A stretch of 64,000 nucleotides of DNA from the sequence record OR455461.1; one strand, written 5' to 3'. The notes below the pieces were generated by a model. It ran no database searches. It saw nothing but the letters and a program-made list of their open reading frames with translations, and was not told where the DNA came from. This document shows, piece by piece, positions 22,456 through 63,727 of this stretch. The first letter of the stretch is position 1. Every line of letters begins with the position of its first letter. The position numbers were made by a program, and so were the translations under genes. The stretch is from Staphylococcus phage AH12.

Positions 22456-22664
22456 TAGCTTTAATACCTACATTTTTTGATTTAGGGTTATTTAGTAAAT
22501 AAACAGCTATTTGTGAGTCTTTATTAAGCGAGTAAGTTCTATTAAATAATCCATCATTATATGAAATTAATTGATTTACTGGATCTTGGACTTTTAACTG
22601 TTCGTATTGTTCTTCTGAAAATAGTGCTATGATGTTTAAAGTGTCACCATCATACGTTTATCTT
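22448..22664 (-). CDS. RNA polymerase beta-prime N-terminal subunit, exon 2 (starts YDGDTLNIIALFSEEQYEQL...)
   Basis: YDGDTLNIIALFSEEQYEQLKVQDPVNQLISYNDG...SQIAVYLLNN aligns to [39 protein letters not shown]...SQDVVLGLYYMT (catalytic Mg-binding loop). There is no start codon. It is preceded by an intron-like element ending in G. Confidence 0.6.
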
Positions 22665-22834
22665 AATCTATATAAATATTATCATATAGACGAGACTATA
22701 TCATTACCATTTAAGGTAGAATATATTTAGTCGTTGAACAAATTATATTAATTTGATGCTGATTAATTTAATAATCTTCTCAGCAATTAATATTCTTTTC
22801 TATAAATCTCTCAATTTAAAGCGACTATTATTTA
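22665..22834 (-). ncRNA. compact group I intron B in the beta-prime gene (~170 nt)
   Basis: P AATTGCTGAG, Q AATCAGCATC, R GTTCAACGACTAAAT, S GATATAGTC and a P9 hairpin in canonical order. The element ends ...AAACG immediately before the YDGD exon. Confidence 0.6.
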
Positions 22835-22840
22835 ATCGGC
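22835..22840 (-). CDS. proposed 6-nt micro-exon GCCGAT (Ala-Asp) restoring NADYDGD
   Basis: Inference only. GCCGAT lies between the two intron cores, is preceded by ...CAAATG (a possible terminal G) and ends in T. Joining SNN + AD + YDGD reproduces the universal NADFDGD motif. Confidence 0.3.
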
Positions 22841-23041
22841 CATTTGTATTAACTTCATAGAGATTTTTCTATAAAGATTAGACTATATCAAACTCATATT
22901 AGTGAGTGAATTTATTTAGTCGTTGAACAATCATCTTGATTGATGCTGATTAATTTAATAATCTTCTCAGCAATTAAAATTCTTTTGACATTATATTACT
23001 ATAATGAAAGGCTACCTTTATAACCCATACCAGCAAGTATA
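22841..23041 (-). ncRNA. compact group I intron A in the beta-prime gene (~200 nt)
   Basis: Second copy of the P/Q/R/S core (core 22868-22986) immediately 3' of ...VVGISNN. The upstream exon's reading frame runs on into the intron and stops by chance at 23000. Confidence 0.55.
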
Positions 23042-24120
23042 TTATTACTAATACCTACTACTGATGATTCTATATCTTGAATTATATCTTTAATTTTCAA
23101 TATTTGAACAGAGCTTTCACTAATTGAGGGATTTCTATTTAAAATAACTCTCATTCCATTTTCAGTTTTATCAACTAGTTCTCTCATATATTTATATACT
23201 TTAGGATTAAATGTATCTAATGCTCTGTCTAATATTTCTTCACCTTTAGCTAAAGGAATATTTTCTGTTACATACATTAAATTTGCTAAGATAGGTTTAT
23301 ATACTTCTAAGAAGATAGTGTAATTTAATCTGATTTCATTTAATTTAAGGTCAGGTGCTGGAACAATTACTGAACGTGCAGAGAAACCAACACGACTACC
23401 CATTAGTAATTTACGAATAGTTCCACCTTTACCTTTAATATTCTCATTAATTACACGATCACTAATATTAATACTATCATTCTGAATTTTACTTAATAGA
23501 TTTAATTTTTGTAACTCCACTGAATCATCTGTATAATGTCTATCAAGTTCTTTAATACTATTACTATGTGCAATTAATAAATTATAATCTTTATTAATTT
23601 CAGAATGTCTAAAAGTTTTAGTAGCTTTGTTAACTGTAGCAGGTCTTAATTTAGGACTAAATACAGTTACATAATTTTGGAATAGTAAATCAGATAAATA
23701 CCATTGTACTACTCTATTGTAATCTTTAGTTTTACGTTTATCACGTTTAACTTCTTCTTTAAGAATTTTTAAGAAATTCTTTCTAAATTCAATTAAACCA
23801 ATATAAGAGTTATGATCATCTTCAGGTTCAATTACATTACCATTCTCATCAATAGGTTTTTCAGAACTAATAATTTCTTGGAATCTTTTATTACCAATTA
23901 ATTTTTTAACACGTTCATATCCTAATGGATTTAATATATAATTATTACCTAAATCTACAATAGCTTCATTAGTAATATTATCTGCTTCTGAATCAGGACC
24001 GAAGATTTTTTCACTGAAAATACCATCTTCAGTGAAATCTCCTTTTTTATCTATTGATTCATGATTAGTTACAACTGGAACATTTTCTAAATCCTTTTTC
24101 TTGAGTAAAAATCTAACCAT
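23042..24120 (-). CDS. RNA polymerase beta-prime N-terminal subunit, exon 1
   Basis: IKGKGGTIRKLLMGSRVGFSARSVIVPAPDLKLNEIRLNYTIFLEVYKP aligns to [46 protein letters not shown]. ...VILNRNPS aligns to VLLNRAPT. The exon stops just before the DFDGD loop. Confidence 0.65.
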
Positions 24121-24123
24121 AAC

Positions 24124-25746
24124 TTAATCTTCTCCCTCTTCTACAATTTCTTTAATGTCCATAACAACTTCTTGATCATCATTTTCTTTCTCTAATTTAT
24201 CAATATTTTCAATATCTTCAATTTCTTTGATATTAGGTTTATTTTCAAAATAGAATGAACCATTTTCACCAGGATCTTTAACTTCACAGAAAGGTGTTAA
24301 AGTACGAGTAATACCTGGATTATTTGATGAAGTAGCAATCAAATCAATTCTACCGAAATAAGTGTTATTGATATTGATTGTTCTAATAGATGGTTTACTA
24401 GTGTCTACAGCTGATTGTGGACCTGCTTTAGTCATTTTAAGAATTCTAGTAAATAAGTCAATTGTATTAACTGCATTAGAATAACGTATACCGTCAGAAG
24501 TTCCAATAGTCTTCAATAGATAATCTCTAGGTACTCCTGAGAATAATCCTTTAAGATTTTTAATTGTACGTTTTTTATCTGAGAAGTTAATCATACGATA
24601 TGAAGTATCAGAGTTTTTTCTATTCAGTGGATAAGTTAAATATTCTAATACTCTTAAACGTTTATTAGCTAAATCTGTATTATCTAATAAGTTAAGATTA
24701 TCAAAGTTCTTAAACATGTATTTAACCACATGATAAGTTGATTCTTTATCTTCTGATTCTAATCGTGATATAGCTTGAGTACGACTATCTAATATACGAT
24801 CAAATGAAAGTATCATTGAATTCGCTTTATCTATTTTAGTGTCAATATTAGTTGAACCACTGAAGATAGAACCTAAAGCTTTTAACCAGAATTCTCTATC
24901 GTATATTTTATCTAATCCCGCTCTCATTCCTTTGAATAAATCTTTAATACAAAGGATCATAGAATTTCTATAACGATCATCAACGTCTAACCATTCTTTT
25001 TCAACTTTTAAAGAAAGTTTATTATTAATTTTAAAGTAATAGTAATTATCTTCTTTTTCATCATTAATATCTATTACTTTACAATGGTCTTTAATTTCTA
25101 AGAATTCAAATGTTTCATCAAATCCCATTTTTGCAACAAAGAACATAAATGCTGGAACACTCTTATTTTTATTGAACACTTCTAGATATAGAGTTCTTCC
25201 TCTTTGGACATTATTCATCTTATTATCGTCATCCATAATAGTATCTTTTTTAGAACCATTGACTGATAGTGGTTGCAATAAGTTTTTCATTACTACAGTA
25301 CTAGCTTTTGGTTTATAAAATTCAGCATCTGCTAATTGTAGAATTGGGAAAAATTTGTTATTATTAATATAGTAGTATTGACCTTCAATAAGTTCAGGGA
25401 AATCTAATTTGTGTGTATATTCTTCTTTATTACCTTCTGAATCTTCAAATTCTACTGTAATTTGAACTTCTAGTAATTTAGATTCCTCAACATTAATTTT
25501 TCTGTAATCTTTAGATTTAAGTTGTTTATCTGTCATTTGATTAAATTCATAAACCTGACTTGGTGAAACGACTTTACAATCTAAGAATTTAATTCCTTTA
25601 ATAAATTCTACTGATCTATAAATGTCTGAAATGATTTTTTCTAAACTTTCATTTTGTCTGAAATAGATTACGTCTTCGTTAAATGGTTCTTTTTTGCTAA
25701 TGTCTTCGTTGATGTTCTTTGTAACTTTACTTAAGTATTTACTCAA
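24124..25746 (-). CDS. RNA polymerase beta subunit, N-terminal part (split-beta type)
   Basis: NTYFGRIDLIATSSNNPGITRTL aligns to [22 protein letters not shown]. 540 aa, ends before the NRALMG region. Confidence 0.65.
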   Translation of the reverse strand: MSKYLSKVTKNINEDISKKEPFNEDVIYFRQNESLEKIISDIYRSVEFIKGIKFLDCKVVSPSQVYEFNQMTDKQLKSKDYRKINVEESKLLEVQITVEFEDSEGNKEEYTHKLDFPELIEGQYYYINNNKFFPILQLADAEFYKPKASTVVMKNLLQPLSVNGSKKDTIMDDDNKMNNVQRGRTLYLEVFNKNKSVPAFMFFVAKMGFDETFEFLEIKDHCKVIDINDEKEDNYYYFKINNKLSLKVEKEWLDVDDRYRNSMILCIKDLFKGMRAGLDKIYDREFWLKALGSIFSGSTNIDTKIDKANSMILSFDRILDSRTQAISRLESEDKESTYHVVKYMFKNFDNLNLLDNTDLANKRLRVLEYLTYPLNRKNSDTSYRMINFSDKKRTIKNLKGLFSGVPRDYLLKTIGTSDGIRYSNAVNTIDLFTRILKMTKAGPQSAVDTSKPSIRTININNTYFGRIDLIATSSNNPGITRTLTPFCEVKDPGENGSFYFENKPNIKEIEDIENIDKLEKENDDQEVVMDIKEIVEEGED

Positions 25747-38248: not shown

Positions 38249-38635
38249 TTATTTTGAATCTTCTTTAATTTCTTTAACTAAATTATTTATTTCTGTAGAT
38301 GTTAAATCTTTAATATCATCTACATTTTCGAATTTTTCCATTAAGAACTCTAATTGATCTGGAGAAAGATCCATAATTGAATAAAGATCTTCTTCTTCTG
38401 CTTTATTGTAATCAATACTAACATTTAATGGACTAAAGTAAGCATTAAGTACTTTAGTGTTGTTATTTTGATATCTTTTTTCAAATGTAGTATTTAATTT
38501 AAAAGGATTACCTGTATATAACTCTACTAATAAACGTTTTCTTAAGTCTTCATTATTAGAGTACATATTAGTTAATTCATTAATAGCTTTGATAGATCCA
38601 CCGATCATCATGTTAGTTGTTTCCATCTCACCGCA
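38249..38635 (-). CDS. RNA polymerase beta C-terminal gene #1, terminal exon (starts ..GEMETTNMMIGGSIKAINEL)
   Basis: The frame is open upstream of the first Met back to ...CGGTGAGATGGAA. GEME + 21 residues align to the universal [22 protein letters not shown] block. Preceded by an intron core ending ...AATAACTG. Confidence 0.55.
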   Translation of the reverse strand, partial: CGEMETTNMMIGGSIKAINELTNMYSNNEDLRKRLLVELYTGNPFKLNTTFEKRYQNNNTKVLNAYFSPLNVSIDYNKAEEEDLYSIMDLSPDQLEFLMEKFENVDDIKDLTSTEINNLVKEIKEDSK

Positions 38636-38781
38636 GTTATTCTAAATATTATTATTTAGCTAGACTATATCATTACCATTTAAGGTAGAATATATTTAGT
38701 CGTTGAACACTAATTAAAGTGATGCTGATTAATTTAATAATCTCTCAGCAATTAATATTCTTTACATTTATACATTTCTAT
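38636..38781 (-). ncRNA. compact group I intron (beta #1, core 38664-38761)
   Basis: P/Q/R/S core, the P3 pairing GAATA/TATTC and a P9 hairpin CTAAAT..ATTTAG. Confidence 0.55.
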
Positions 38782-38834
38782 ATAACGGAGCCTTTTATTT
38801 GACTCTGAGAGGATTGTTGTTTATTCTTGATCTG
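38782..38834 (-). CDS. proposed micro-exon (...KQQSSQSQIKGSVI) of beta #1
   Basis: Inference. The frame QIKNKQQSSQSQIKGSVI, joined to the terminal exon through a split ATC codon, gives QIKGSVIGEME, which aligns to [11 protein letters not shown]. The segment is locally richer in G+C than the flanking intron sequence. Confidence 0.35.
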
Positions 38835-39037
38835 TAAAACTTAGACATTTATATTAACTATATTTATTTAAAAAATAGATTAGACTATATCATTACCATT
38901 TAAGGTAGAATATATTTAGTCGTTGAACCTCTTATTTGAGGATGCTGATTAATTCAATAATCTCTCAGCAATTAATATTCTTTACATACATATTATTTCT
39001 AATACATGGGACACAAAATTTATCCGGTGTTCTTGTG
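38835..39037 (-). ncRNA. compact group I intron (beta #1, core 38882-38980)
   Basis: P/Q/R/S core with the hairpin variant TACCATTTAAGGTA. Confidence 0.5.
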
Positions 39038-39060
39038 GGAATACCACTGTAATTATTAAA
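39038..39060 (-). CDS. proposed micro-exon (..YSHKNTG) of beta #1
   Basis: Inference. TATTCCCACAAGAACACCGGAT encodes YSHKNTG, comparable to SRSMKTG in beta #2 and HARSTG in bacterial beta. Confidence 0.3.
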
Positions 39061-39262
39061 GTCAATTGATTTTGCACTTAATTTCTATTTTATTAATCTT
39101 TATAATATAATTTATAAAGTATAGACTATATCTTCATTCTATATTATAGAAGAACTATATTTAGTCGTTGAACACTATTTAAAGTGATGCTGATTATTTT
39201 ATTACTCTCAGCAATTAATAATTTAATAATTCTTTAATTTATATAAAGAACGGCAAATAATT
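39061..39262 (-). ncRNA. compact group I intron (beta #1, core 39122-39225)
   Basis: P/Q/R/S core. P8 hairpin variant CTTC...GAAG with compensatory substitutions. P9 hairpin CTTTATAAattataTTATAAAG. Confidence 0.5.
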
Positions 39263-39283
39263 TACCTGATGGTTCATGTTTTA

Positions 39284-40829
39284 CGAATCTATATTAACTT
39301 CATATAGATCCCAGACTATATCTTAAAGTCTATGAAGACCTTTCACTTATTTAGTCGTTGAAGCTCTTTAATTATATTTTCAATCTCTTTTAAATGGTCT
39401 TGTTTATAGTTTATTCTATAAAGAGGAATATTTTTATTGATACAATATTCATCTTTCATTTTATCTTTCATTCTAATCTCTTCTAATTTTTCTTTAGGAA
39501 ATCTGCTACTAGGATTTTTCCTAAAATGCTGTTCACCATCATATTCAATTAGTACATTATAATCTACTAAATAAAAATCAAATCTTAAATTTTGATTTAT
39601 TTTTAGATCTTCAAATGTTTTCTCAAACTCAACATTTGTATTCGTATCAATTAAATATTTTTCTATTTGACGGTGAGCTAATGAATTTGCATACTGTTTT
39701 GCACAAAAAGGACATTTATTTATAGAATCTTTAAAATATTCTGCTTTCATTTTAAAATTATTTCCACATTTTTTATGATGAAAATTGTAAATATTTTTAG
39801 TTCCCTTGAATTCATTATCTAGTATTAAATATTCATTTGAATTAAATTTTTTATTACATATTTCTAGAAATTCTTTTTTTGTTAAGAATTTATTCTCTAA
39901 GCTACAATGTGGACATTTATAATCATTATTTAACATATTATTTGCTAGCATATTAAAACTTCTGTTACATTTTTTATGAAGGAAATTATGTTTAGTTTTA
40001 ATTCCTTTAAACTTGTCATCTAATAATTCGTAATCATCATAATCTTTTCTATTTTCTTTCATTTTTTCATTAAATGACTTTTTATCGTATTTTAATAATT
40101 TAATTTTATCACAATTAGGACAAATAATAACATTATTTAAAAAACTTCCTCCGGTCATTTCAAATTCAGTTCCACAATCATCATGTTTAAATTTTGTTAT
40201 TTTAGAGAATCCATTATACTTTCCTAAAATAGAATACCCACTTATATTTTTCTCTTTTTTAGCCTTTTCTAAAAACTCTTCATTACTATATTTCACAGAG
40301 AAACAACAATTTGGGCATCGATTCATATTGTATAAAAATTCAGAACCTTTCATTGTAAAATATTTTCCACATTCTTCATGGTAAAACTTATGGTGTTTTT
40401 TAGTACTTTTAAAATCATCAATTAATTTATAACCTTCAGTACTTTTTCTTTTGTTTGCTTCTTCCATAAAAGTTTTATTATTGTATTTTAAACCATTTTC
40501 ACATTTAGGACATCTCTTAGAGTAATCTAAAAAACCTCTACCTGTCATTTCAAATTCAGTTCCACAATCAACATGTAATATTTTATGATTAAATTTATAA
40601 CCTTTATACTCTTCTAATAATTCATAATTTCCAATATTCTTTTCTTTTATTTTATTCATATATTCTTCATGTGTTAATTTTACCATTTATTTCCTCACCT
40701 TTCCAGACCAATAGAAAGGATTTTAATATAATTAAATTAGCATGCTGATTACTTTTAAAGCTTCTCAGCAATTAAAGTGATTTTTCATTTATTGTTACCA
40801 ATATAAGGAAGCTAAAACATAATTTGTCT
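39284..40829 (-). ncRNA. group I intron with a homing-endonuclease ORF in the P6 loop (beta #1)
   Basis: P AATTGCTGAG and Q AATCAGCATG lie at about 40745-40785. The ORF 39343-40686 follows Q. The ORF's stop codon lies inside the R element (CAACGACTAAATAAGTGA). S GATATAGTCTGG and a P9 hairpin follow at about 39290-39330. Confidence 0.55.
39343..40686 (-). CDS. intron-encoded homing endonuclease-like protein: 5 tandem Zn-ribbon modules + C-terminal PD-(D/E)xK (DUF559/Vsr-like) nuclease domain
   Basis: Five repeats of the pattern ...F.H..CG..F.M....FL....CP.C. C-terminal ...RFDFYLVDYNVLIEYDGEQHFR. Own ribosome-binding site AGGTGAGG. Embedded in the intron. Confidence 0.55.
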   Translation of the reverse strand: MVKLTHEEYMNKIKEKNIGNYELLEEYKGYKFNHKILHVDCGTEFEMTGRGFLDYSKRCPKCENGLKYNNKTFMEEANKRKSTEGYKLIDDFKSTKKHHKFYHEECGKYFTMKGSEFLYNMNRCPNCCFSVKYSNEEFLEKAKKEKNISGYSILGKYNGFSKITKFKHDDCGTEFEMTGGSFLNNVIICPNCDKIKLLKYDKKSFNEKMKENRKDYDDYELLDDKFKGIKTKHNFLHKKCNRSFNMLANNMLNNDYKCPHCSLENKFLTKKEFLEICNKKFNSNEYLILDNEFKGTKNIYNFHHKKCGNNFKMKAEYFKDSINKCPFCAKQYANSLAHRQIEKYLIDTNTNVEFEKTFEDLKINQNLRFDFYLVDYNVLIEYDGEQHFRKNPSSRFPKEKLEEIRMKDKMKDEYCINKNIPLYRINYKQDHLKEIENIIKELQRLNK

Positions 40830-41402
40830 TTACTTCAGGTGATACAAATCTCCAACCATAAATGTTCTATTACTAACATCTAGTCGGTTTTTCTTAATAT
40901 TGTATTTATTGAATAAGTATCTGATTTGTTCAGATTCAATATTATCAAAGAAAGGTGCTTGATGAAGTACAATACCATTTTTAATAAAGTCTTCAATAGC
41001 TTCTTTAGTTTCTTCACTATCTAAACTATCAAATAATCTTACATAATTATCATAAGATACTTTATCTGCATCTTTGATATATTCTAATAAATATTCTTTC
41101 TGCTTATTAACATCATCTAACTTACTAATACGATGTCTAATAACGCTTGAAATATGATTTAATTCTAATTCCACTAATGCTGAAGGATTTCCTCTATTAA
41201 TAATACCCATATTATTATGAATTAAGTCTACTCTTTTCTTAATAGGAGTTTTATTATCTTTGGTGAAATCTTCTCCATCAAATTCAGTAATCATTGGCAT
41301 TTCATTATCTGGAACAATCTTAGCTACTACACCTTTTCCACCGTATCTTGTGCTTATTTTTGCATTTATGTTAATGAACTTCATAGACTTTACTAAGAAG
41401 AT
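40830..41402 (-). CDS. RNA polymerase beta C-terminal gene #1, exon C (GRHGNKG region)
   Basis: AKISTRYGGKGVVAKIVPDNEMPMITEFDG aligns to [29 protein letters not shown]. The end ...MVGDLYHLK aligns to VGYMYMLKL. The frame is open 18 nt upstream of the ATG (IFLVKS). Confidence 0.6.
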   Translation of the reverse strand: MFLVKSMKFININAKISTRYGGKGVVAKIVPDNEMPMITEFDGEDFTKDNKTPIKKRVDLIHNNMGIINRGNPSALVELELNHISSVIRHRISKLDDVNKQKEYLLEYIKDADKVSYDNYVRLFDSLDSEETKEAIEDFIKNGIVLHQAPFFDNIESEQIRYLFNKYNIKKNRLDVSNRTFMVGDLYHLK

Positions 41403-41537
41403 CAGACTATATCATTACCTTCATATAAGGTAGAATATATTTAGTCGTTGAACACTATTTATAGTGATGCTGATTAATTTTATAATTCTCAGCAATTAAT
41501 ATTCTTTACATATAAATTTTCATTCATAAGGGACCTA
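41403..41537 (-). ncRNA. ultra-compact group I intron (~135-145 nt; core 41404-41505)
   Basis: P/Q/R/S core, P3 pairing GAATA/TATTC, P6 pairing CACTA..TAGTG. The element ends with the S element + G directly before exon C. The 5' boundary is uncertain by a few codons. Confidence 0.55.
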
Positions 41538-42115
41538 TTAATTTGATCCATGCACTAAAGGTTTCTTCTCTAATACTTTAACTCTAAATACGATTTTATC
41601 AAATTGATTTCCATCATATACAAGTTTAGCATTAGGATCAATGTAGCTCTTAAATCTATTATAAGTTCTAATTAAATCATTACTAAATTTCTTCTTACGT
41701 ACAATATCATCAGTAACAGTTACAAATGTACGGTAGAAGTGTTCTAAATCTTTGATATATTTTAGGAATTGTTCAGAGTACTTTTCATTCTCTAATTTTT
41801 CAATTGATTCATTGTTAAGTACATCAATATCAATAACTTTACCATGCAATTTATAAGCGTTATCACTTTCAACAATTTTAGATAACATATCATTTTTAAA
41901 TTTATGGATTAACTCATCATAATTTAATCGTCTTGTTGCAGTTAATACACCGTCTTTAATTTCTTCACCAACGTCTGGAAATGCTTTATAATATTCTTCA
42001 TCTCCATAAATATTTAAAGGAATATCATTTGTATTTATAGTTACATTAACTACATGAACGAAATAACTTGACATTTTCTCAGCTAATGATTCTGATACAA
42101 CAATACCATCTTCCT
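41538..42115 (-). CDS. RNA polymerase beta C-terminal gene #1, exon B
   Basis: EDGIVVSESLAEK... and ...GEEIKDGVLTAT align to DSGVTAVAKRGGVV ... GEPVERGDVLADG. The end KIVFRVKVLEKKPLVHG aligns to KIVKVYLAVKRRIQPG. It begins right after the element's terminal ...CCTATAG. Confidence 0.6.
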
Positions 42116-42262
42116 ATAGGTTATAATTAATAAAATTATACCATAGACTATATCATTACCGTTTAAGGTAGAATATATTTAGTCGTTGAACACTGTTTTT
42201 AGTGATGCTGATTAATTTAATAACATCTCAGCAATTAATATTCTTTACATACATAAATTTCT
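42116..42262 (-). ncRNA. ultra-compact group I intron (~147 nt; core 42146-42242)
   Basis: P, P5, Q, P6, R, P3', P8 (TACCGTTTAAGGTA), S and P9 (GGTATAATT..AATTATAACC), then TATAG followed by the exon. Only about 22 nt is available for P1/P2. Confidence 0.55.
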
Positions 42263-42814
42263 TTATGCAGGAACAAAGTTAATTTTATTCGTGAATCCTT
42301 TATCTGGTAAAAATACTGAAGTAGCATTTGTACCATATTGGAAATTATTTGATTCTTCATCATAGTTTTGATCTTTATAAAGTACTTCATTTTTATTAAC
42401 ATTACTACCAATTTCTAAAGAATCAATTTTTTCATTTTGATATTTATTACCAAATTTCTCAGCTAAATGATTAGCTTCTTCTCTAATAATGATATCATAC
42501 TCATCATTATCTTTATACTTCACTAAATAGTATTTTACATATTTATTCTTTTCAAATATAAAAATAACTTCAAAATCTCTTTCAGCTTTCTTATAACCAG
42601 TTGAATATTTACCTACTTGATTCTCAAAACCAGTTTGAATTAATGGTGGTTCAGCTTCAGTTAATTGAATACATTGACCTATATGTGAAGTGAACATTTG
42701 TGATCTGTTACCATTAGTTCTATTAACATTAGGCATTAATAGTAATTCTGATAAAAATTCATGACTTTTCTTATCTTCAATCTCTTGCATTCTTTGTGTT
42801 CTTTCCTTTGTCAT
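42263..42814 (-). CDS. RNA polymerase beta C-terminal gene #1, exon A (region F)
   Basis: NGNRSQMFTSHIGQCIQLTEAEPPLIQTGFENQ aligns to ANRALMGSNMQRQAVPLL..EAPLVGTGME. Confidence 0.6.
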   Translation of the reverse strand: MTKERTQRMQEIEDKKSHEFLSELLLMPNVNRTNGNRSQMFTSHIGQCIQLTEAEPPLIQTGFENQVGKYSTGYKKAERDFEVIFIFEKNKYVKYYLVKYKDNDEYDIIIREEANHLAEKFGNKYQNEKIDSLEIGSNVNKNEVLYKDQNYDEESNNFQYGTNATSVFLPDKGFTNKINFVPA

Positions 42815-57233: not shown

Positions 57234-57384
57234 TTCACCTTAGTAAGTAAAATACTATTACTATAACTAAAATTGCAACTACAATTCCAGACCATCCCAC
57301 AGGTGGTATTATTGCTAATGGTCCACGGAATATAATACCTAGTATTAATAAAATTACTAGTATAGCTATTAACCAAGTAATCAT
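57234..57384 (-). CDS. very small membrane protein (49 aa, missing from the ORF track)
   Basis: MITWLIAILVILLILGIIFRGPLAIIPPVGWSGIVVAILVIVIVFYLLR read from the sequence. Follows a GGTAATGAC-type hairpin. Confidence 0.3.
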
Positions 57385-57450
57385 ATAGTTACTCCTTTCT
57401 TAATCTCCATATATTATGAGATATAAGGATAAAAGGTTGTTTTATAATTA

Positions 57451-57750
57451 TTATTCTTCTTGATCATAATCAGTTCTAGTATCTTTAAGTAAATCTGAAT
57501 CTATACCAGCACCTAATAAATAATAGTAAGTGGTATTCAAAGTAGTTTTATCAGAAAGATCGTCTGGTAAATCTTCTAGACGAGTATAACCATACATTGA
57601 AATGTTTTTATTCATTTCCTGTTTAGCATTCATAGAGTCTGAACGAGGACCCATTAATTCTCTTAATATATCTTGAGACCCAATTGCTCTTAATGCTGAA
57701 GCTTCCATATTTGATACAGAAGCTACCTTGTCCGCACCTGAGAGTTGCGA
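57451..57750 (-). CDS. RNA polymerase beta C-terminal gene #2, terminal exon (starts ..QLSGADKVASVSNMEASALRAIGSQDILRELMGPRSDS)
   Basis: The frame is open upstream of the Met. QLSGADKVASVSNMEASALRAIG..LRELMGPRSDSMNAKQEMNKNI aligns to [48 protein letters not shown]. Confidence 0.6.
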   Translation of the reverse strand, partial: SQLSGADKVASVSNMEASALRAIGSQDILRELMGPRSDSMNAKQEMNKNISMYGYTRLEDLPDDLSDKTTLNTTYYYLLGAGIDSDLLKDTRTDYDQEE

Positions 57751-57897
57751 TTATCCTATATATTTCTATATAAGTCAGACTATATCTTATACTCTTTATG
57801 AGTACCATTATATTTAGTCGTTGAACAATCAATTTGATTGATGCTGATTAACTTTAATTTTCTCAGCAATTAATAATATTATCATTATCATATTACT
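57751..57897 (-). ncRNA. ultra-compact group I intron (beta #2, core 57777-57880)
   Basis: P/Q/R/S core. P9 hairpin TATATAGAAATATATA with a GAAA tetraloop. The element ends ...GGATAATCG before the exon. Confidence 0.5.
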
Positions 57898-58020
57898 ATA
57901 ATAAGCGGCCAAAATTTTTTCATTAAAACCGGTTTTCATTGATCTCGAGGAAGCGTCTAGACTGTATGCGTTTTTCTTTGAGAGGAGCTGCTGTACAATA
58001 ACTTCATACACTATTTTTAA
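57898..58020 (-). CDS. RNA polymerase beta gene #2, internal mini-exon (~120 nt; ..LKIVYEVIVQQLLSKKNAYSLDASSRSMKTGFNEKIL..)
   Basis: Locally G+C-richer island flanked by intron cores. SRSMKTG aligns to ARSTG. The ORF-track entry 57829-58011 reads through into the intron. Boundaries approximate. Confidence 0.4.
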
Positions 58021-58161
58021 TTAGTGTTTAGACTATATATTCATCCTATTAGGAGTTTTAATTTTAGTCGTTGAACTTTATTAAGATTATTCACTTAATA
58101 TTAGATGCTGATTAGCTTCATAAACTTTCCCAGCAATTTAAAAAATTTTACATATACATTA
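58021..58161 (-). ncRNA. ultra-compact group I intron (beta #2, core 58030-58140)
   Basis: P/Q/R/S core. P has TTGCTGGG, which gives a G-U wobble with Q, a change tolerated only at the RNA level. Confidence 0.45.
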
Positions 58162-58205
58162 CTGCATAAGGAGGCTACAACAGTATTTAACCTCTTAACA
58201 TGTAA
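58162..58205 (-). CDS. proposed micro-exon (..HVKRLNTVVASL..) of beta #2
   Basis: Inference. HVKRLNTVV aligns to MLKLNHLVD of bacterial beta. A G+C-richer island between two intron cores. Confidence 0.3.
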
Positions 58206-58340
58206 GTCATTTATCTTTACTATATTCATTTTATAGATGAGACTATATCTTCTTTGCCATATATTTAGTCGTTGAACAATTCAATTGATGCTGATCAACT
58301 TTAAATGTCTTTTCAGCAGTTAATATGATTTTAATTGAGC
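58206..58340 (-). ncRNA. ultra-compact group I intron (beta #2, core 58242-58325)
   Basis: P/Q/R/S core with correlated P and Q substitutions (CTGCTGA / GATCAGCATC). P9 hairpin CTATAaaatgaaTATAG. Confidence 0.45.
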
Positions 58341-60026
58341 TCATACATAAGTTAACCCAACTGGTACTTTATATCTAGTTCTTAATGGATCTTCTTTATT
58401 TCCATCATGTCTATAATAAACAAATTCATTCATAGGAACTTCTAATTTGTCTAAAGCTTCTTGTATTTGATTAATATCAGCTTCAGATTTATTAGGTAAA
58501 ACTTCTATATAGAAATTCTCATCACTATTTATGAAACGTTTAATATATCTCATAAATTCTTCATCATTCATTTCATCGTAAAATGATTTATAATTTCTCA
58601 TATTACTTTGATCTTTATCTAATGAAGATATAACATCAAGTATTTTATTTTGAATTTCTTGACGTTTCTTTTTATTGTCGCTTACTGCTTCATTTAAGAT
58701 TGATTCTGGTTCTAGAATAGTTTCATTTAAAGTATTTTCATTGAATTCCATAAAGAATCTTTCGATTATTTCTATATCACTAGATATTGCTTTTTGGAAT
58801 TCAAAACTAGCAGGAATTTCTTTAACACTAAATTTGAATTCTCCATTATCTTTAACATTCTCATCGAAACCAAATTTGTCTGCACTATATCTATTAATAT
58901 CTTCCATATTACCAAATATAATTGGACTATCAATACTAAAGTCTGCTAATACATATCCTTGTCCATTATATGACACAGGGAAAAGTTTTATTCTATTTTT
59001 AGATGGTTCTACATATGAAATTAACTCTATAGATTTGATCCCTAATTTCTTTTCCAATATTTTAAAATAAAGTAAAGATAATAGGTTAGGATTTATTCTT
59101 CCTTGATCTGGTTTAATAGAGAAGTTTTTATCTAATATCATTGAAGGAGTTACTGTATAATATACTTCTTCAGATTTATCTTCAGTAAATACAGGTTTAG
59201 AATTTTTAGTTTTATTATATAGGTAATTAAAAACATCTAATTCATTTTCTAATTGATACTCATAAATTATATCATTTAATTTATTATCAAATTCATAGTC
59301 TCCATAGAATTTATAGATGTCAGTTTCATTATATTTCAAAACTTCTTTATTTGTGAATAAAGGTGAATTGAGTACATTATTCTCTGTAAATATTTTATTG
59401 TATATAATATCTTCTTTAGAATCTGAGAAAATATTATTTCCCATAGATTCTAAAACTTTTACTAAAGTTCTTAATTTAGCATCATTATAGAAATTATACT
59501 TATCTTTATTATAACTTACATATTCTTCAGAATTTAAATACTCACTAAAATCTTTTCTTTTAGTTGAATCTTTACTTAGAAATCTAACTTTAGTAACTTC
59601 TGTAAGCTTATCAATATCATTCAAAATAGTTTTAATACTGCCAGTATCGTTAATAACGATAGGATTTCCACCTTTATAATCTCCAGCATAATCTATTAAT
59701 ATATCTTCTTCTCTACTCTTTTGATTTTGAAGAACGATGAATCTAATTTGTGTATTATCATTAAAATACTTAATTAAACTAATATCAAACCAACAAGAAT
59801 TTCCTTTTTTATCATGAATTTGATTTTCATTATAATCTAATAGAAAATCTATTTCTGATTCAGTGACTAATATTTCTGTTTCATTCACTAAATCAATAGG
59901 AGATTTAATTACACTGATATTATCTGATCCACATTCAGAACAAGATGTAATATCTTCATTATATTCTTGAACTTTGCTACAAGAATTACATCTAACGTAT
60001 TTATTTTTCAATTCATTCACTTCCAA
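58341..60026 (-). CDS. RNA polymerase beta C-terminal gene #2, exon 1 (N-terminal Zn ribbon; AGDYKGG and ..[19 protein letters not shown] blocks)
   Basis: [14 protein letters not shown] aligns to [40 protein letters not shown] aligns to [22 protein letters not shown]. The ORF ends where gene #1 is also interrupted. Confidence 0.5.
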   Translation of the reverse strand: [561 protein letters not shown]

Positions 60027-60088
60027 TTCTTTTTATTTCTTAATATGATGATGTTTCTTTACAAATTTACCAAAAAATTAAATAAAAT

Positions 60089-60147
60089 AGGTAATGACCA
60101 AATTAATGATCATTACCTGTATTTAATATTATTTATAATGAATATAC
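60089..60147 (-). promoter_or_regulatory. GGTAATGAC-type hairpin + AT-rich TATAAT-like element
   Basis: AGGTAATGACCAAATTAATGATCATTACCT followed by GTATTTAATATTATTTATAATG. Confidence 0.35.
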
Positions 60148-60172
60148 TTTACTAATTACAAATCAAACTTTT

Positions 60173-63100
60173 TTAATTTGTTTTAATAATTGATGCATCA
60201 ACACAATACTCACTATCATTTAATTTCATTAAAGGATTTCCGAAAGTTGTACGTTTATAAGTGTTTATTTCAGATAAAGGTACATTGATAGTTTTATTTT
60301 CAGTAACTAATAATAGATTGTCTTCTTCATCATTATCAATCATACTAATGTACATTACTGAATCTTTATCATCTTTAAATTTAGCTGCAATAACTCCTTT
60401 AATTGATCTAGATTTAACTGGTATCTCATCTATTTCAACTTTCTTAGCTAAACTTTTATGAGTGACAATTAGTACTTTATCTTGACCTGAATCAATGACA
60501 GTTGAAGCAACCTTATTATTTTTATTAATTGTAGTATTACTGAAAATAGCTGATCCTATAGTTGTTCGTTTTTGAACTGGAACTAACTCATGAGAGAATC
60601 TAATCATATTTCCCTTTTCAGATATCGCAACTAAATTAAAAGGTTTCTTAGAGTGTACATTATGAACATTTACAACTCTATCATCTTCATTAAGCTTAAT
60701 TAAAATTACTCCTGATCTACTAATTTCTTCAACCATAACCATTTTAATTTTATTTAATTCAGTAGTGACTACAAAAGCTGTATCTGGGTCTTTTAATTCT
60801 TCATCAGTTAATGTGAAAGCTTTAACGATATTTTCTTTTTTAGTAAATCTAGTAATATCTTTACCAAAGTTATTTAATGATTTAATTTCTGGGAATTCAT
60901 ATACCTTATCATAGAATAACTTACCTTGATCTGTTACTAGGAATAAATTATCTTTACTATTAGCGTTGAATATATTTAGAGGTACATCTCCATCAGATAA
61001 TTTGCCAATACTAATACCTTTACCATTACGTTTTTGAGGTTTACTCACTTCAGCTTTAACCTTTTTAATTTTACCCTGTTTAGTTATAATGACCATGAAT
61101 TCTTCATCTTTAACTAATAAATCTTTATTGTCTGATTTAAAATCTAAATCGGAATATTTAGTAATTCTAGTTCTCTTAAGTGTATTTTTATCTTTCTTAA
61201 TTTCTTTTAATTCTTCTACAATAAGATTTTTTAGTTTATTAACATCTTTCATGTATTCCATTTCAGAATTAACTATTTCTTCTTTTTCATTCTTTTCTTC
61301 AATAAGTTTATTTACTTCAAGATTATTAATTGTATATAGCTTCATATCAGCTACATATGCTGCTTGAGCATGTGATATATTAAATTTCTTACTAACTGTA
61401 TCAATAATATCTTCTTTACCTTTACCAGACTTAACAATCTTAATTAATTGATCTATATTCTTAGAATCTAATACAACTAGCAATCCTTCTATAATATGAA
61501 TACGACTTCTTAAATCTTTAATTTTAAATGACTTAATACGTTTAACAGTAGATTGTCTAAATTCAATCCATCTATCAAGAATATTTAATAAATTAGTTTC
61601 AATAAGCTTATTATTATCTACTAATTTAATATCAAAATTAACTCTAGAAGTTACAGTTTTAATTTTATATAATTGATTAAGTGCTAAATCTAAGTCTGTC
61701 GATTTTGTATATTGTAATATTAAATTAACATTACCTTTTTGAGATCCATCAGAAATATTCTTAAGTCCATCTAATCTTTCTTCTTTATAAGCTTCTTTAA
61801 TAGCTTCAATCATTCTTTCTAAAGTTATATTATATGGAATTTCTGTTATTGTTAATGTAGATTTACTTTCATCTTTTTCAATAACTGATCTTAATAACAT
61901 TGATCCTTTTCCTGTTCGATAATATTTCTCTAGATCATCTACATAAGCTTCTCCACCATAAGGAAATTGTGGTCTAAAATTATTATCTTTAATTAATGTC
62001 TTCAATTGTTTATTAGGATTTTTAAGTCTATCAATAGTAATATTAACTACATCATTAATATCATGTGGAGGTAAATCAGAACGATGTCCTCCTCCACCAA
62101 TACCAAAACTACCATTGACTAATATATAAGGTAATTTAGAAGGTAACACTAAAGGTTCTAACATTGATCCATCAAAGTTTTTAACCATATTAACTGCATT
62201 ATCATTGATATTATCTAATAAGTTTCTTTCTGAGAACTTATTCAATCTCATCTCTGTATTATGGTGAATAAAACCTTCAGCCATAAATGAGTGGTCTTCA
62301 GTATCAACTCTAATTGAGTATACAGTTTCTTCTTCATCTAAAGATTTAATAGATTTAACTTTATCAAAATATGTGTTATTATCTAAATACTTAGATATGA
62401 ATAATAGTAAGTGATCATTATCCAATATTTCAATACCATATTCTTCCTCTAATAGATTAAAATTATTTAAGAAATTCTTTCTTGTATTGAATAATTCTGG
62501 ATAAAAGTAATTAGTCATTTTTCTTTCATCTAATACTTCATCTAAGAAAGGTATAATTTGATATTTATTAGGTTTATCATCTCTGTACATATCTATTATA
62601 CTTTCGATTTTACTATTATATAGTTCATCATCTTTAATTAAATGATTAACTAAGTTTTTAAGTGAATGAATATCTTGTATTTGTAGTCTAAACGTATCAG
62701 TACTGAATTCATTTATCACAGAATATATTCCAAATTGAGATAATAATACAGATATTTCTTGCATAAATCGTTTACTATAACTTTCTATAATTAAACCAAC
62801 ATTATCTACAATCTCACTATCTTGTCTAAATAATTCCATTAAAAATTCTCTTTTATATCCTAAACAAGCTTCAAGAATTTTATCAGGTAATATTTTTTCA
62901 GTCTCAATAGATTTCATTAAAATTCCATATTCAGGGTCTAAAGTCTTTTTAAAATATTTTTGAGATAAAAGTTCTCCCCATTTTCTAAAGCTCTCTTTTT
63001 CATTATCATTTAGATTTTTACTTCTGAAATCCTTAAGATCATTCTTTTGTAAAGTTCTATTTATCAAGTAATCATCTTCATTAATTTCATCCATTGTCTT

Positions 63101-63727
63101 CCATTTAAAGTCTAAACCTTTACTTTCATGTTTAGTAATAGTTAATAAAGGATGATTTGATGTTGCTTTAATATTCTTACCAGATTCAGTTTCTAATTCC
63201 ATTACTTTATGTTTTCCTGAATTAAAGAACTTACTAGCTTTTACTGATTTTCTTCTAAAATCTTTTACTACTTTATCAATATTATGTGTAGTATCTAAAT
63301 CTGTATTAGGTACAATATCTTTAATACGTTTTAGTTCACCTTCAGATAATTCTACAATATGATTTCCTGTTAAACAATAACGTGAAGCGGCTGCAGAAGC
63401 TCCTGTAATAGAACCAAATGCACCATGTCCTTCAATTAATGGTTGGTTCATAGAAAACGGTGTAATCATATTAACAGCAGAATCATAAATACCATCATTA
63501 CTATGTGGATGTAATATAGTAGTATCACCAGCAATTCTAGCAGATTTAGCAAATTTCTTATCGGATCTATAACCGTTTTTATACATAATGTATAATATTT
63601 TTCTTTGAATAGGTTTCAAACCATCTCTAATATCTGGTATTTGACGATTTGTATTAATCTCATTAAAATAAATCATCATATTATCATGAACTACTTCTTT
63701 TAAATCTTTCTTAAAAATCTCTGCCAT
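60173..63727 (-). CDS. type IIA topoisomerase subunit A (GyrA/ParC-like) precursor containing an intein
   Basis: N-terminal RDGLKPIQRKILY and GDTTILHPHSNDGIYDSAVNM, then AASRY (catalytic tyrosine). C-terminal GyrA-box-like QKRNGKGISIG and beta-pinwheel-like repeats. Confidence 0.75.
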   Translation of the reverse strand: MAEIFKKDLKEVVHDNMMIYFNEINTNRQIPDIRDGLKPIQRKILYIMYKNGYRSDKKFAKSARIAGDTTILHPHSNDGIYDSAVNMITPFSMNQPLIEGHGAFGSITGASAAASRYCLTGNHIVELSEGELKRIKDIVPNTDLDTTHNIDKVVKDFRRKSVKASKFFNSGKHKVMELETESGKNIKATSNHPLLTITKHESKGLDFKWKTMDEINEDDYLINRTLQKNDLKDFRSKNLNDNEKESFRKWGELLSQKYFKKTLDPEYGILMKSIETEKILPDKILEACLGYKREFLMELFRQDSEIVDNVGLIIESYSKRFMQEISVLLSQFGIYSVINEFSTDTFRLQIQDIHSLKNLVNHLIKDDELYNSKIESIIDMYRDDKPNKYQIIPFLDEVLDERKMTNYFYPELFNTRKNFLNNFNLLEEEYGIEILDNDHLLLFISKYLDNNTYFDKVKSIKSLDEEETVYSIRVDTEDHSFMAEGFIHHNTEMRLNKFSERNLLDNINDNAVNMVKNFDGSMLEPLVLPSKLPYILVNGSFGIGGGGHRSDLPPHDINDVVNITIDRLKNPNKQLKTLIKDNNFRPQFPYGGEAYVDDLEKYYRTGKGSMLLRSVIEKDESKSTLTITEIPYNITLERMIEAIKEAYKEERLDGLKNISDGSQKGNVNLILQYTKSTDLDLALNQLYKIKTVTSRVNFDIKLVDNNKLIETNLLNILDRWIEFRQSTVKRIKSFKIKDLRSRIHIIEGLLVVLDSKNIDQLIKIVKSGKGKEDIIDTVSKKFNISHAQAAYVADMKLYTINNLEVNKLIEEKNEKEEIVNSEMEYMKDVNKLKNLIVEELKEIKKDKNTLKRTRITKYSDLDFKSDNKDLLVKDEEFMVIITKQGKIKKVKAEVSKPQKRNGKGISIGKLSDGDVPLNIFNANSKDNLFLVTDQGKLFYDKVYEFPEIKSLNNFGKDITRFTKKENIVKAFTLTDEELKDPDTAFVVTTELNKIKMVMVEEISRSGVILIKLNEDDRVVNVHNVHSKKPFNLVAISEKGNMIRFSHELVPVQKRTTIGSAIFSNTTINKNNKVASTVIDSGQDKVLIVTHKSLAKKVEIDEIPVKSRSIKGVIAAKFKDDKDSVMYISMIDNDEEDNLLLVTENKTINVPLSEINTYKRTTFGNPLMKLNDSEYCVDASIIKTN
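62258..63376 (-). mobile_element. intein (373 aa) inserted immediately after the catalytic Tyr of the topoisomerase (AASRY | C...HN | TEMRL)
   Basis: Starts with Cys (CLTGNHIV, block A). TxxH block B (ATSNHPLL). Ends ...SFMAEGFIHHN followed by Thr. The exteins rejoin to AASRYTEMRLNKF, the canonical GyrA active-site context. The central region is large enough for a homing-endonuclease domain. Confidence 0.7.

Follow-up and report, generated by a model that had tools for sequence, protein, structure and literature searches.

How can a phage express an RNA polymerase (RNAP) subunit gene whose most conserved segment is broken up by noncoding inserts, and why should two such genes be interrupted in the same region? 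The question is raised by a 64,000-nucleotide (nt) stretch of Staphylococcus phage AH12 (record OR455461.1), the whole of which is referred to here as the window. In it, one minus-strand gene at 60026/60011-57451 (gene 2) and a second one at 42814-38249 (gene 1) resemble the C-terminal part of the bacterial RNAP β subunit (β-C). We consider it very probable that gene 2 encodes the C-terminal β-like subunit of a virion-packaged multisubunit RNAP, from a pre-mRNA that carries three mobile mini group I introns.

The junctions of gene 2 were set by alignment to its intronless orthologues in the phages UFV_DC4 and SA1. We regard these two copies as intronless because a 170-amino-acid (aa) trial splice product aligned with them in tblastn as a single unbroken high-scoring segment pair of 510 nt. 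On this alignment, gene 2 is one gene, composed of four exons and three group I introns that contain no open reading frame (ORF). This agrees with the preliminary description of the locus, which had proposed a second, independent β-C gene split by three introns; the gene is on the minus strand, and exactly three introns are now placed between 57748 and 58354. The parts of the gene are as follows (IGS, internal guide sequence; HMM, hidden Markov model; P, Q, R and S, conserved elements of the intron family):

58355-60026, minus strand: exon 1, 1672/1657 nt, ending in ...CCAGTTGGGT in phase 1; taken from the ORF list and colinear with the intronless coding sequences (CDSs) of UFV_DC4 and SA1.
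58208-58354, minus strand: predicted group I intron vB_1, 147 nt, no ORF, terminal G; Rfam 26.0 bits, E = 3e-04; family HMM E = 8e-23; IGS GAGCTCAA at 58342-58335, P at 58319-58313, Q at 58294-58289, R at 58277-58264 and S at 58250-58241.
58190-58207, minus strand: exon 2, the micro-exon ACTTACATGTTAAGAGGT, 18 nt, which finishes a Tyr codon and then encodes LHVKR and the first base of a Leu codon.
57996-58189, minus strand: predicted group I intron vB_2, 194 nt, no ORF; Rfam 48.4 bits, E = 5.8e-11; IGS TAGCCTC at 58177-58171, P at 58136-58130, Q at 58111-58106, R at 58076-58063 and S at 58040-58031.
57928-57995, minus strand: exon 3, 68 nt, encoding (L)QQLLSKKNAYSLDASSRSMKTG.
57748-57927, minus strand: predicted group I intron vB_3, 180 nt, no ORF; Rfam 35.4 bits, E = 4.3e-07; inserted at the site of AR9 gp077 intron 1; IGS GGCCG at 57910-57906, P at 57869-57863, Q at 57847-57842, R at 57826-57813 and S at 57787-57778.
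57451-57747, minus strand: exon 4, the terminal exon, 297 nt, encoding QLSGADKVASVSNMEASALRAIG...DYDQEE and the stop codon, with a weak Pfam Rpb2_7 match.

Joined in this way, the exons give an in-frame CDS of 2055 nt with a predicted product of 684/679 aa. The intronless orthologue ...KVPVGYLHVKRLQQLLSKKNAYSLDASTRSMKTGQLTSSDKVASVSNMEASAL... reads VPVG-Y-LHVKR-LQQ...KTG-QL, and these residues are recovered exactly in the gene 2 splice, for which YKVPVGYLHVK and SMKTGQLSGADK are the predicted junction-spanning peptides. A first guess at the initial junction, with the micro-exon read as LKINDLHVKR, was replaced after the alignment to the intronless orthologues. The 18-nt exon is also found in Machias, LY01 and Madawaska. 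Translation probably starts at TTG 60011 rather than at TTG 60026, since the annotated start in Machias lies there and the ribosome-binding site GGAAGTG precedes it. The exon and intron numbers given earlier thus stand, while the boundaries were 3 to 14 nt off: exon 1 ends at 58355 and not at 58341, which is the stop codon reached by the unspliced frame after 14 nt of the first insert, the first base of the terminal exon is 57747 instead of 57750, and the mini-exon put at ~120 nt is 68 nt long, about half of that.

The spliced product matches PHROG 3233 (“RNA polymerase beta subunit”) with an E value of 1.6e-36, residues 447 to 668 corresponding to positions 2 to 223 of the 225 in the profile, and this single match runs across the three junctions without a break. 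A second PHROG matched by the product is the AR9-gp077-type PHROG 23439. Gene 2 is orthologous to gp077 of Bacillus phage AR9 (tblastn, 1e-21), whose record carries the note “virion RNAP subunit” and reports that the RNAP domain alone was found in virions, and to g203 of Yersinia phage phiR1-37 (tblastn, 5e-15), an RNAP β subunit flagged as “phage structural protein.” The Machias counterpart is annotated as “viral RNA polymerase beta subunit,” its exons having been joined by alignment to AR9 YP_009282982. A phmmer search of PDB sequences aligned the last ~165 residues with positions 1161 to 1313 of Escherichia coli β (E ~1e-3), and Xanthomonas β was matched alike. The segment that carries the introns is the most conserved one of gene 2 and is homologous to E. 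coli β ...GEME. Among the bacterial β blocks assigned to gene 2 in the preliminary description, VTVGYMYM, the HARS region and ...KMYKNI do align. The GRHGNKG block was misplaced, because HMMER pairs YRHDGNKEDPL, which contains the RHDGNKE taken for it, with LYDGRTGEQF of E. coli β, ~10 residues before VTVG.

Database homologues of the C-terminal module are mostly stand-alone proteins of 240 to 270 aa, and an exact-sequence look-up of the spliced gene 2 proteins of Machias and the window gave no match. The N-terminal region (58700-60011, minus strand) starts with a zinc-ribbon-like CxxC...CxxC motif; a comparison of its 437 aa with phiR1-37 g204 and with the N-terminal part of the Goe21 orthologue gave no similarity in either case. 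The virion RNAP β-C proteins of Bacillus jumbo phages have been reported to contain an HD domain in their N-terminal region (Sokolova et al. 2020, PMC7598289).

What, then, are the inserts? A local scan of positions 57300-58500 with the Rfam model Intron_gpI (RF00028) gave three minus-strand matches, one for each insert. Eleven copies of the group I R element/core motif TTCAACGACTAAA lie on the minus strand of the window, where 0.06 would be expected by chance, and a search of the window with the family HMM retrieved the same 11 elements and no others. The family thus amounts to 11 near-minimal copies in 64 kb, all of them in the most conserved codons of RNAP genes. Its P, Q, R and S elements (AATTGCTGAGA, AATCAGCAT, GTTCAACGACTAAA and GATATAGTC), which stand for the conserved group I core (P3/P7 pseudoknot, P4-P6, J6/7 and J8/7), are invariant or nearly so in the alignment, and all 11 members have a terminal G at junctions fixed by the intronless orthologues. 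RNAalifold, run on a MAFFT alignment in which the 3′ strand of P3 is misaligned, gave only P4, P7 and P8; the helices were then checked individually, sequence by sequence, in 15 members. This check showed that P3, P6, P8 and P9 always form although the sequences that pair differ between members, with at least six different complementary sequences forming each of P3 and P6 (for P3, for example, GAAUAU/AUAUUC, GAAUUU/AAAUUC, AAUUAU/AUAGUU, CAUAU/AUAUG and AUUAU/AUAAU).

In gene 2, a U precedes each of the three 5′ splice sites and pairs, within P1, with a downstream guide, and the terminal base of all three introns is G. At site 1, P1 covaries: LY01 and Madawaska combine the exon sequence UUGGAU with the guide GUUCAA, and the window and Machias combine UUGGGU with GCUCAA. 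Both P2 and P8 are present in vB_2 and vB_3, the former having in addition a long P6 and a GUAA loop on P2. By inspection, UACAU of the micro-exon pairs with AUGUA of the upstream intron as P10, and its AAGAGGU forms P1 of the downstream intron. The ORF list contains no credible ORF in vB_1, vB_2 or vB_3 and hence no intron-encoded endonuclease.

Taken together, these features suggest the following mechanism. Gene 2 would be transcribed as one pre-mRNA, in which the internal guide of each intron would pair with the last 4 to 7 nt of the upstream exon to form P1, with a U·G pair at the splice site. The introns, which we infer to be self-splicing, would be removed by a guanosine-initiated two-step transesterification ending at the terminal G of the intron, so that the four exons would be united into a reading frame of 679/684 codons. 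The 18-nt micro-exon would be almost wholly used in this process, serving in P10 of the intron upstream and in P1 of the intron downstream. The introns themselves would be selfish mobile elements that have repeatedly colonized the most conserved codons of phage RNAP genes.

Several points weigh against this picture. The splicing of gene 2 is deduced from its sequence, and the scores of vB_2, vB_3 and vB_1 (48.4, 35.4 and 26.0 bits) all lie below the Rfam gathering score of 50; because the introns score under the curated cutoff, Rfam scans of the whole window, at the gathering threshold and at E <= 0.01, gave no matches. On the protein side, the likeness to cellular β is weak (E ~1e-3) and confined to the last ~165 residues, the Pfam Rpb2_7 match is under its cutoff, and for the N-terminal ~440 aa no homologue was identified and no Pfam match was found. 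The location of the protein in the virion is suggested by the annotation of its orthologues in other phages. Finally, vB_1 may not splice unaided, because it is missing P2 and P8, which are normally parts of the group I core.

The last point leads to the alternative that survives best, namely, that the introns, or at least vB_1, are removed only with the help of a phage or host protein or of the neighboring intron, or that the splicing of vB_1 is inefficient and slows down the production of virion RNAP. We regard this as a real possibility, albeit the less probable case. vB_1 has no P2, its P8 is replaced by the 6-nt linker GCAAAG, its Rfam score is the lowest of the three, and it lies only 18 nt from vB_2. 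Set against this, P1, P3, P4-P6, P7, J8/7 and the terminal G are intact, and the P8-less form is kept in a presumably essential gene of four phages (the one of the window, Machias, LY01 and Madawaska). In Madawaska this form has also spread to a second, new site, and its P1 shows the compensatory change described above. The members of this subfamily are 147 to 148 nt long (58208-58354 in the window, L009:1330-1476, and L010:1330-1476 and 1509-1656).

A more far-reaching idea, which we put forward tentatively and hold to be unlikely, is that the vB_1 subfamily is a naturally minimized, functional ribozyme and that the family may spread by guide-directed reverse splicing instead of endonuclease homing. 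The smallest self-splicing intron is generally taken to be that of Azoarcus, at ~205 nt, and vB_1 would be smaller. Reverse splicing would fit with the guide GCUCAA being found at the targets UUGGGU (site 1 of the window) and UUGAGU (the new Madawaska site), and with the introns nvB_b and nvB_C, which are 79 to 84% identical, both being located at GGAU targets with the guide GUCC. It would also fit with the reverse transcriptase of unknown role that has been described for these phages (Korn et al., bioRxiv 10.1101/2020.12.14.422802).

We now turn to gene 1, the other β-C gene, which was delimited by tblastn with the intronless UFV_DC4 protein and identified by its match to PDB 7S00_C. This gene and the associated features of the window are as follows:

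38249-42814, minus strand: gene 1, predicted non-virion RNAP β-C.
42814-42287, 42113-41546, 41362-40832, 39283-39264, 39084-39022, 38845-38802 and 38633-38249, minus strand: the seven exons of gene 1.
42286-42114, 41545-41363, 40831-39284, 39263-39085, 39021-38846 and 38801-38634, minus strand: the six predicted group I introns of gene 1.
39284-40831, minus strand: intron nvB_A of gene 1, with a putative 447-aa endonuclease ORF at 39343-40686 (PHROG 559, “HNH endonuclease,” 1.3e-69).
24124-25746: non-virion β-N gene.
22655-24120, minus strand: non-virion β′-N gene.
23022-22841 and 22834-22655, minus strand: two further members of the same intron family, in the β′-N gene.

The spliced CDS of gene 1 is 2139 nt long and in frame, and three of the internal exons measure 20, 63 and 44 nt. 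Gene 1 had been credited with three introns; it has six, four of them in the region discussed here, and this is one more than in Machias, whose record joins six pieces. Its product matches chain C of the AR9 non-virion RNAP (7S00_C) with an E value of 2e-51, compared with 9e-06 for E. coli β, and its UFV_DC4 orthologue contains a match to Pfam Rpb2_6. By these matches, gene 1 is the orthologue of AR9 gp088 (PDB 7S00), the non-virion RNAP β-C. As a side observation, the 447-aa ORF of nvB_A consists of repeated zinc-ribbon modules and a Vsr/EDxHD-like C terminus, and its last codons overlap the R element of the nvB_A ribozyme.

A profile-profile alignment of gene 1 with gene 2 (hhalign) gave an uninformative E value of 0.25, in keeping with the earlier claim that the two are highly divergent. 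They are distinct, complete and extremely diverged paralogues and not fragments of one gene. Since gene 2 is orthologous to virion and gene 1 to non-virion β-C proteins, the phage is predicted to encode two RNAPs, one of each kind. This AR9-like architecture with two multisubunit RNAPs is the one that had been proposed, and this reading is upheld; the partner genes for non-virion β-N and β′-N are also found in the window. A 5-kb piece around gene 2 is 93.5% identical to Staphylococcus phage vB_StaM_PB50 (PB50) and 96% identical to Machias, its weaker matches being further jumbo phages of Staphylococcus as well as PBS1 and AR9 of Bacillus, so that by sequence similarity the window is that of an AR9-like Staphylococcus jumbo phage. 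The GC content of the window is 19 to 29% in 2-kb bins, and nearly all ORFs of at least 90 aa are on the minus strand.

In the β′-N gene, the two introns flank a 6-nt micro-exon, GCCGAT (22840-22835), which would supply the AD of the catalytic ADYDGD, and the orthologue in UFV_DC4, which is intronless, has GMGADYDGD. For this gene, a 5′ splice site after AAAGGT was rejected, as it is contradicted by the alignment to the intronless orthologue and would be sterically impossible because it leaves a P1 loop of 1 nt.

Are the two β-C genes interrupted at homologous places? Because their direct profile alignment is uninformative, both paralogues were anchored on E. coli β for the comparison of sites (the caret marks the insertion point). 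The sites in gene 2 are VG^Y (phase 1), KR^L (phase 1, aligned to LK^LNH) and TG^Q (phase 0, aligned to VTQ^QP), and the four sites in this region of gene 1 are LK^L (phase 1), SG^K, PD^S (aligned to L^GG) and LR^V (phase 2, aligned to QR^FGEME). Only the sites of vB_2 and nvB_A coincide: each intron interrupts, in phase 1, the Leu codon that comes six residues past VG, the alignment being certain to within one codon in either direction. The vB_1 site has no partner in gene 1, and the vB_3 site is 2 to 3 codons away from that of nvB_C. The notion of introns at three homologous places therefore holds for the region that the genes share and for this one pair of sites, and it fails for vB_1 and vB_3, which have no exact counterpart.

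The sites of gene 2 are variably filled among nine phages, including the one of the window. Sites 1, 2 and 3 are all occupied in the window and in Machias. PB50 has sites 1 and 2 filled and, at site 3, an intron with an endonuclease gene, MarsHill has an intron at site 3 only, which is a different, larger group I intron with an endonuclease gene, and LY01 has introns at sites 1 and 2. Madawaska combines an intron at site 1 with the P8-less copy at its new site after LQQLLS, and UFV_DC4, SA1 and Goe21 have none. Further away, AR9 gp077 has an intron exactly at site 3 (MKSG^QVTG) and another one at GPRA^DNS. Sites are thus filled, empty or occupied by different introns in phages whose DNA is 77 to 96% identical. 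Relative to Machias, the introns of the window have diverged by 1.4 to 3%, compared with 13% for exon 3. Across the family, the introns at four gene 1 sites and one β′ intron form a tight cluster of 80 to 88% identity, while vB_2 and nvB_A are only 64 to 70% identical. By these identities, the intron sequences do not group by insertion site.

Because occupancy is variable, intron divergence is low and there is no grouping by site, we favor a recent, repeated colonization of conserved codons by a proliferating intron family over ancient insertion or homing specific to the paralogues, a mode of spread that we infer from these comparisons. The preliminary description had attributed the shared intron region to homing between the β paralogues or to insertions that predate their divergence, which now appears quite improbable. 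The coincidence in phase and codon of vB_2 and nvB_A speaks for such a history, as do their P1/guide stretches, which are alike (TGTTGTAGCCTCCTTAT versus TGTTTTAGCTTCCTTAT), the sole difference between the guides matching a difference between the exons. However, just one of the three gene 2 sites coincides with a gene 1 site, and the identity of this pair is not above that of random family pairs and is lower than that between introns at unrelated sites and in different genes. Both genes are free of introns in UFV_DC4 and SA1, occupancy changes among close relatives, and the introns of the window are younger than their flanking exons. Moreover, the intron at site 3 in MarsHill, PB50 and AR9 is a different, larger and endonuclease-bearing one, and the paralogues have diverged so far that they cannot have an endonuclease target of 15 to 40 bp in common.

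Across the clade, the last ~125 codons of the virion β-C gene contain at least six insertion sites of group I or group II introns. Separately, we observed a group II intron in the same gene, 4 nt downstream of site 2, in PALS_2 (L011:1347-1920), S6 (L012) and Listeria phage LPJP1 (L014); it matches Rfam RF00029 at ~65 bits and also RF02004 (D1-D4-5), and in S6 it contains a 436-aa ORF.

That gene 2 is instead a decaying, fragmented pseudogene whose inserts are not removed, as its early in-frame stop and the subthreshold Rfam scores of the inserts might suggest, is extremely unlikely, given that, once the inserts are taken out, the gene is in frame and exactly colinear with the intronless orthologues, that the same structure is found in Machias at 96% identity with mostly synonymous exon changes, that every insert has a complete group I core showing covariation, and that jumbo phages of the AR9-like group depend on the virion RNAP (Sokolova et al. 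2020, PMC7598289).

In the window, as in Machias, gene 2 adjoins an intein-containing DNA gyrase A gene (60173-63727, minus strand; the intein is in frame), which is so annotated in Machias and MarsHill. The gap between the two genes (60027-60172, minus strand) contains a terminator-like hairpin, AGGTAATGATCATTAATTTGGTCATTACCT, followed by a T run. A match, AACA-N6-TA, to the AR9 late-promoter consensus (AACA-N6-TW) lies ~35 nt upstream of TTG 60011, in a motif too short for significance.

In substance, the arrangement of two polymerases with intron-split RNAP genes is already known and has been described for close relatives. According to two earlier reports (Korn et al., bioRxiv 10.1101/2020.12.14.422802; Sokolova et al. 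2020, PMC7598289), AR9, MarsHill, Machias and Madawaska have both a virion and a non-virion RNAP, with introns disrupting genes of their subunits. Two RNAPs and intron-rich RNAP genes are an established trait of AR9-like phages, including Staphylococcus phages that are 96% identical, so that little is new there. What remains novel is the precise model of four exons, one of them 18 nt long, and the 147-nt intron form without P2 and P8. The model has a value for annotation, since pipelines call fragments or “hypothetical proteins” (as in PB50 and LY01) or may miss the micro-exon; such miscalls arise because the introns are under the Rfam threshold and the exons are as short as 18 nt, or 6 nt in β′. 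The locus also offers a compact natural system of minimal group I folds, of tandem introns sharing micro-exons and of intron turnover between coinfecting phages.

Among the closest relatives, Machias (CPT_Machias_239), MarsHill (gp230) and Madawaska have the same gene in the same neighborhood, and Machias shares all three introns, position by position, although its record joins three pieces, compared with the four exons, including the 18-nt one, supported by the sequence. In AR9 and PBS1, gp077 and gp088 are the orthologues of gene 2 and gene 1, respectively. AR9 gp077 is likewise split by group I introns, the first of them at site 3; its two introns are ~335 and ~1213 nt long, one contains an endonuclease gene, and the GPRA^DNS site is empty in the window. 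The N-terminal HD domain of AR9 gp077 contrasts with the unrelated ~440-aa region with a zinc ribbon in gene 2, and AR9 gp088 has no introns, whereas gene 1 has six.

Within the staphylococcal phages, Landthaler and Shub reportedly described, in 1999, three group I introns in one gene, orf142, of phage Twort. Gene orf142 resembles gene 2 in having several group I introns of the self-splicing type in one gene of a staphylococcal phage, while the Twort introns are reportedly ~250 nt or longer and have all core helices, compared with 147 to 194 nt here, where the exons between introns shrink to 18 nt, and to 6 nt in β′.

Small introns related to those of the window seem to be widespread in huge phages, because the Q...R core motif of the family was found in 104 IMG/VR loci, mostly on contigs of 200 to 400 kb; the P8-less form was found in none of 21 distinct IMG/VR introns with this motif. 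A study of the Jug gut jumbo phages describes short group I introns with a mean of ~206 nt and ~18 per genome, whose splicing is backed by metatranscriptome reads (PMC12880540). Like the phage studied here, the Jug phages have dense arrays of short, mostly ORF-less group I introns in essential genes, but they differ in their hosts and target genes (terL, nrdD and DNA polymerase). For PhiPA3, a further study reports that the gp210 intron endonuclease targets a virion RNAP gene and mediates competition between coinfecting phiKZ-like phages (PMC11620839). Here, too, a mobile group I intron is found in a gene for a virion RNAP subunit of a jumbo phage. The PhiPA3 intron encodes an endonuclease, as do nvB_A and the site 3 introns of PB50 and MarsHill, in contrast to the three compact introns of gene 2.

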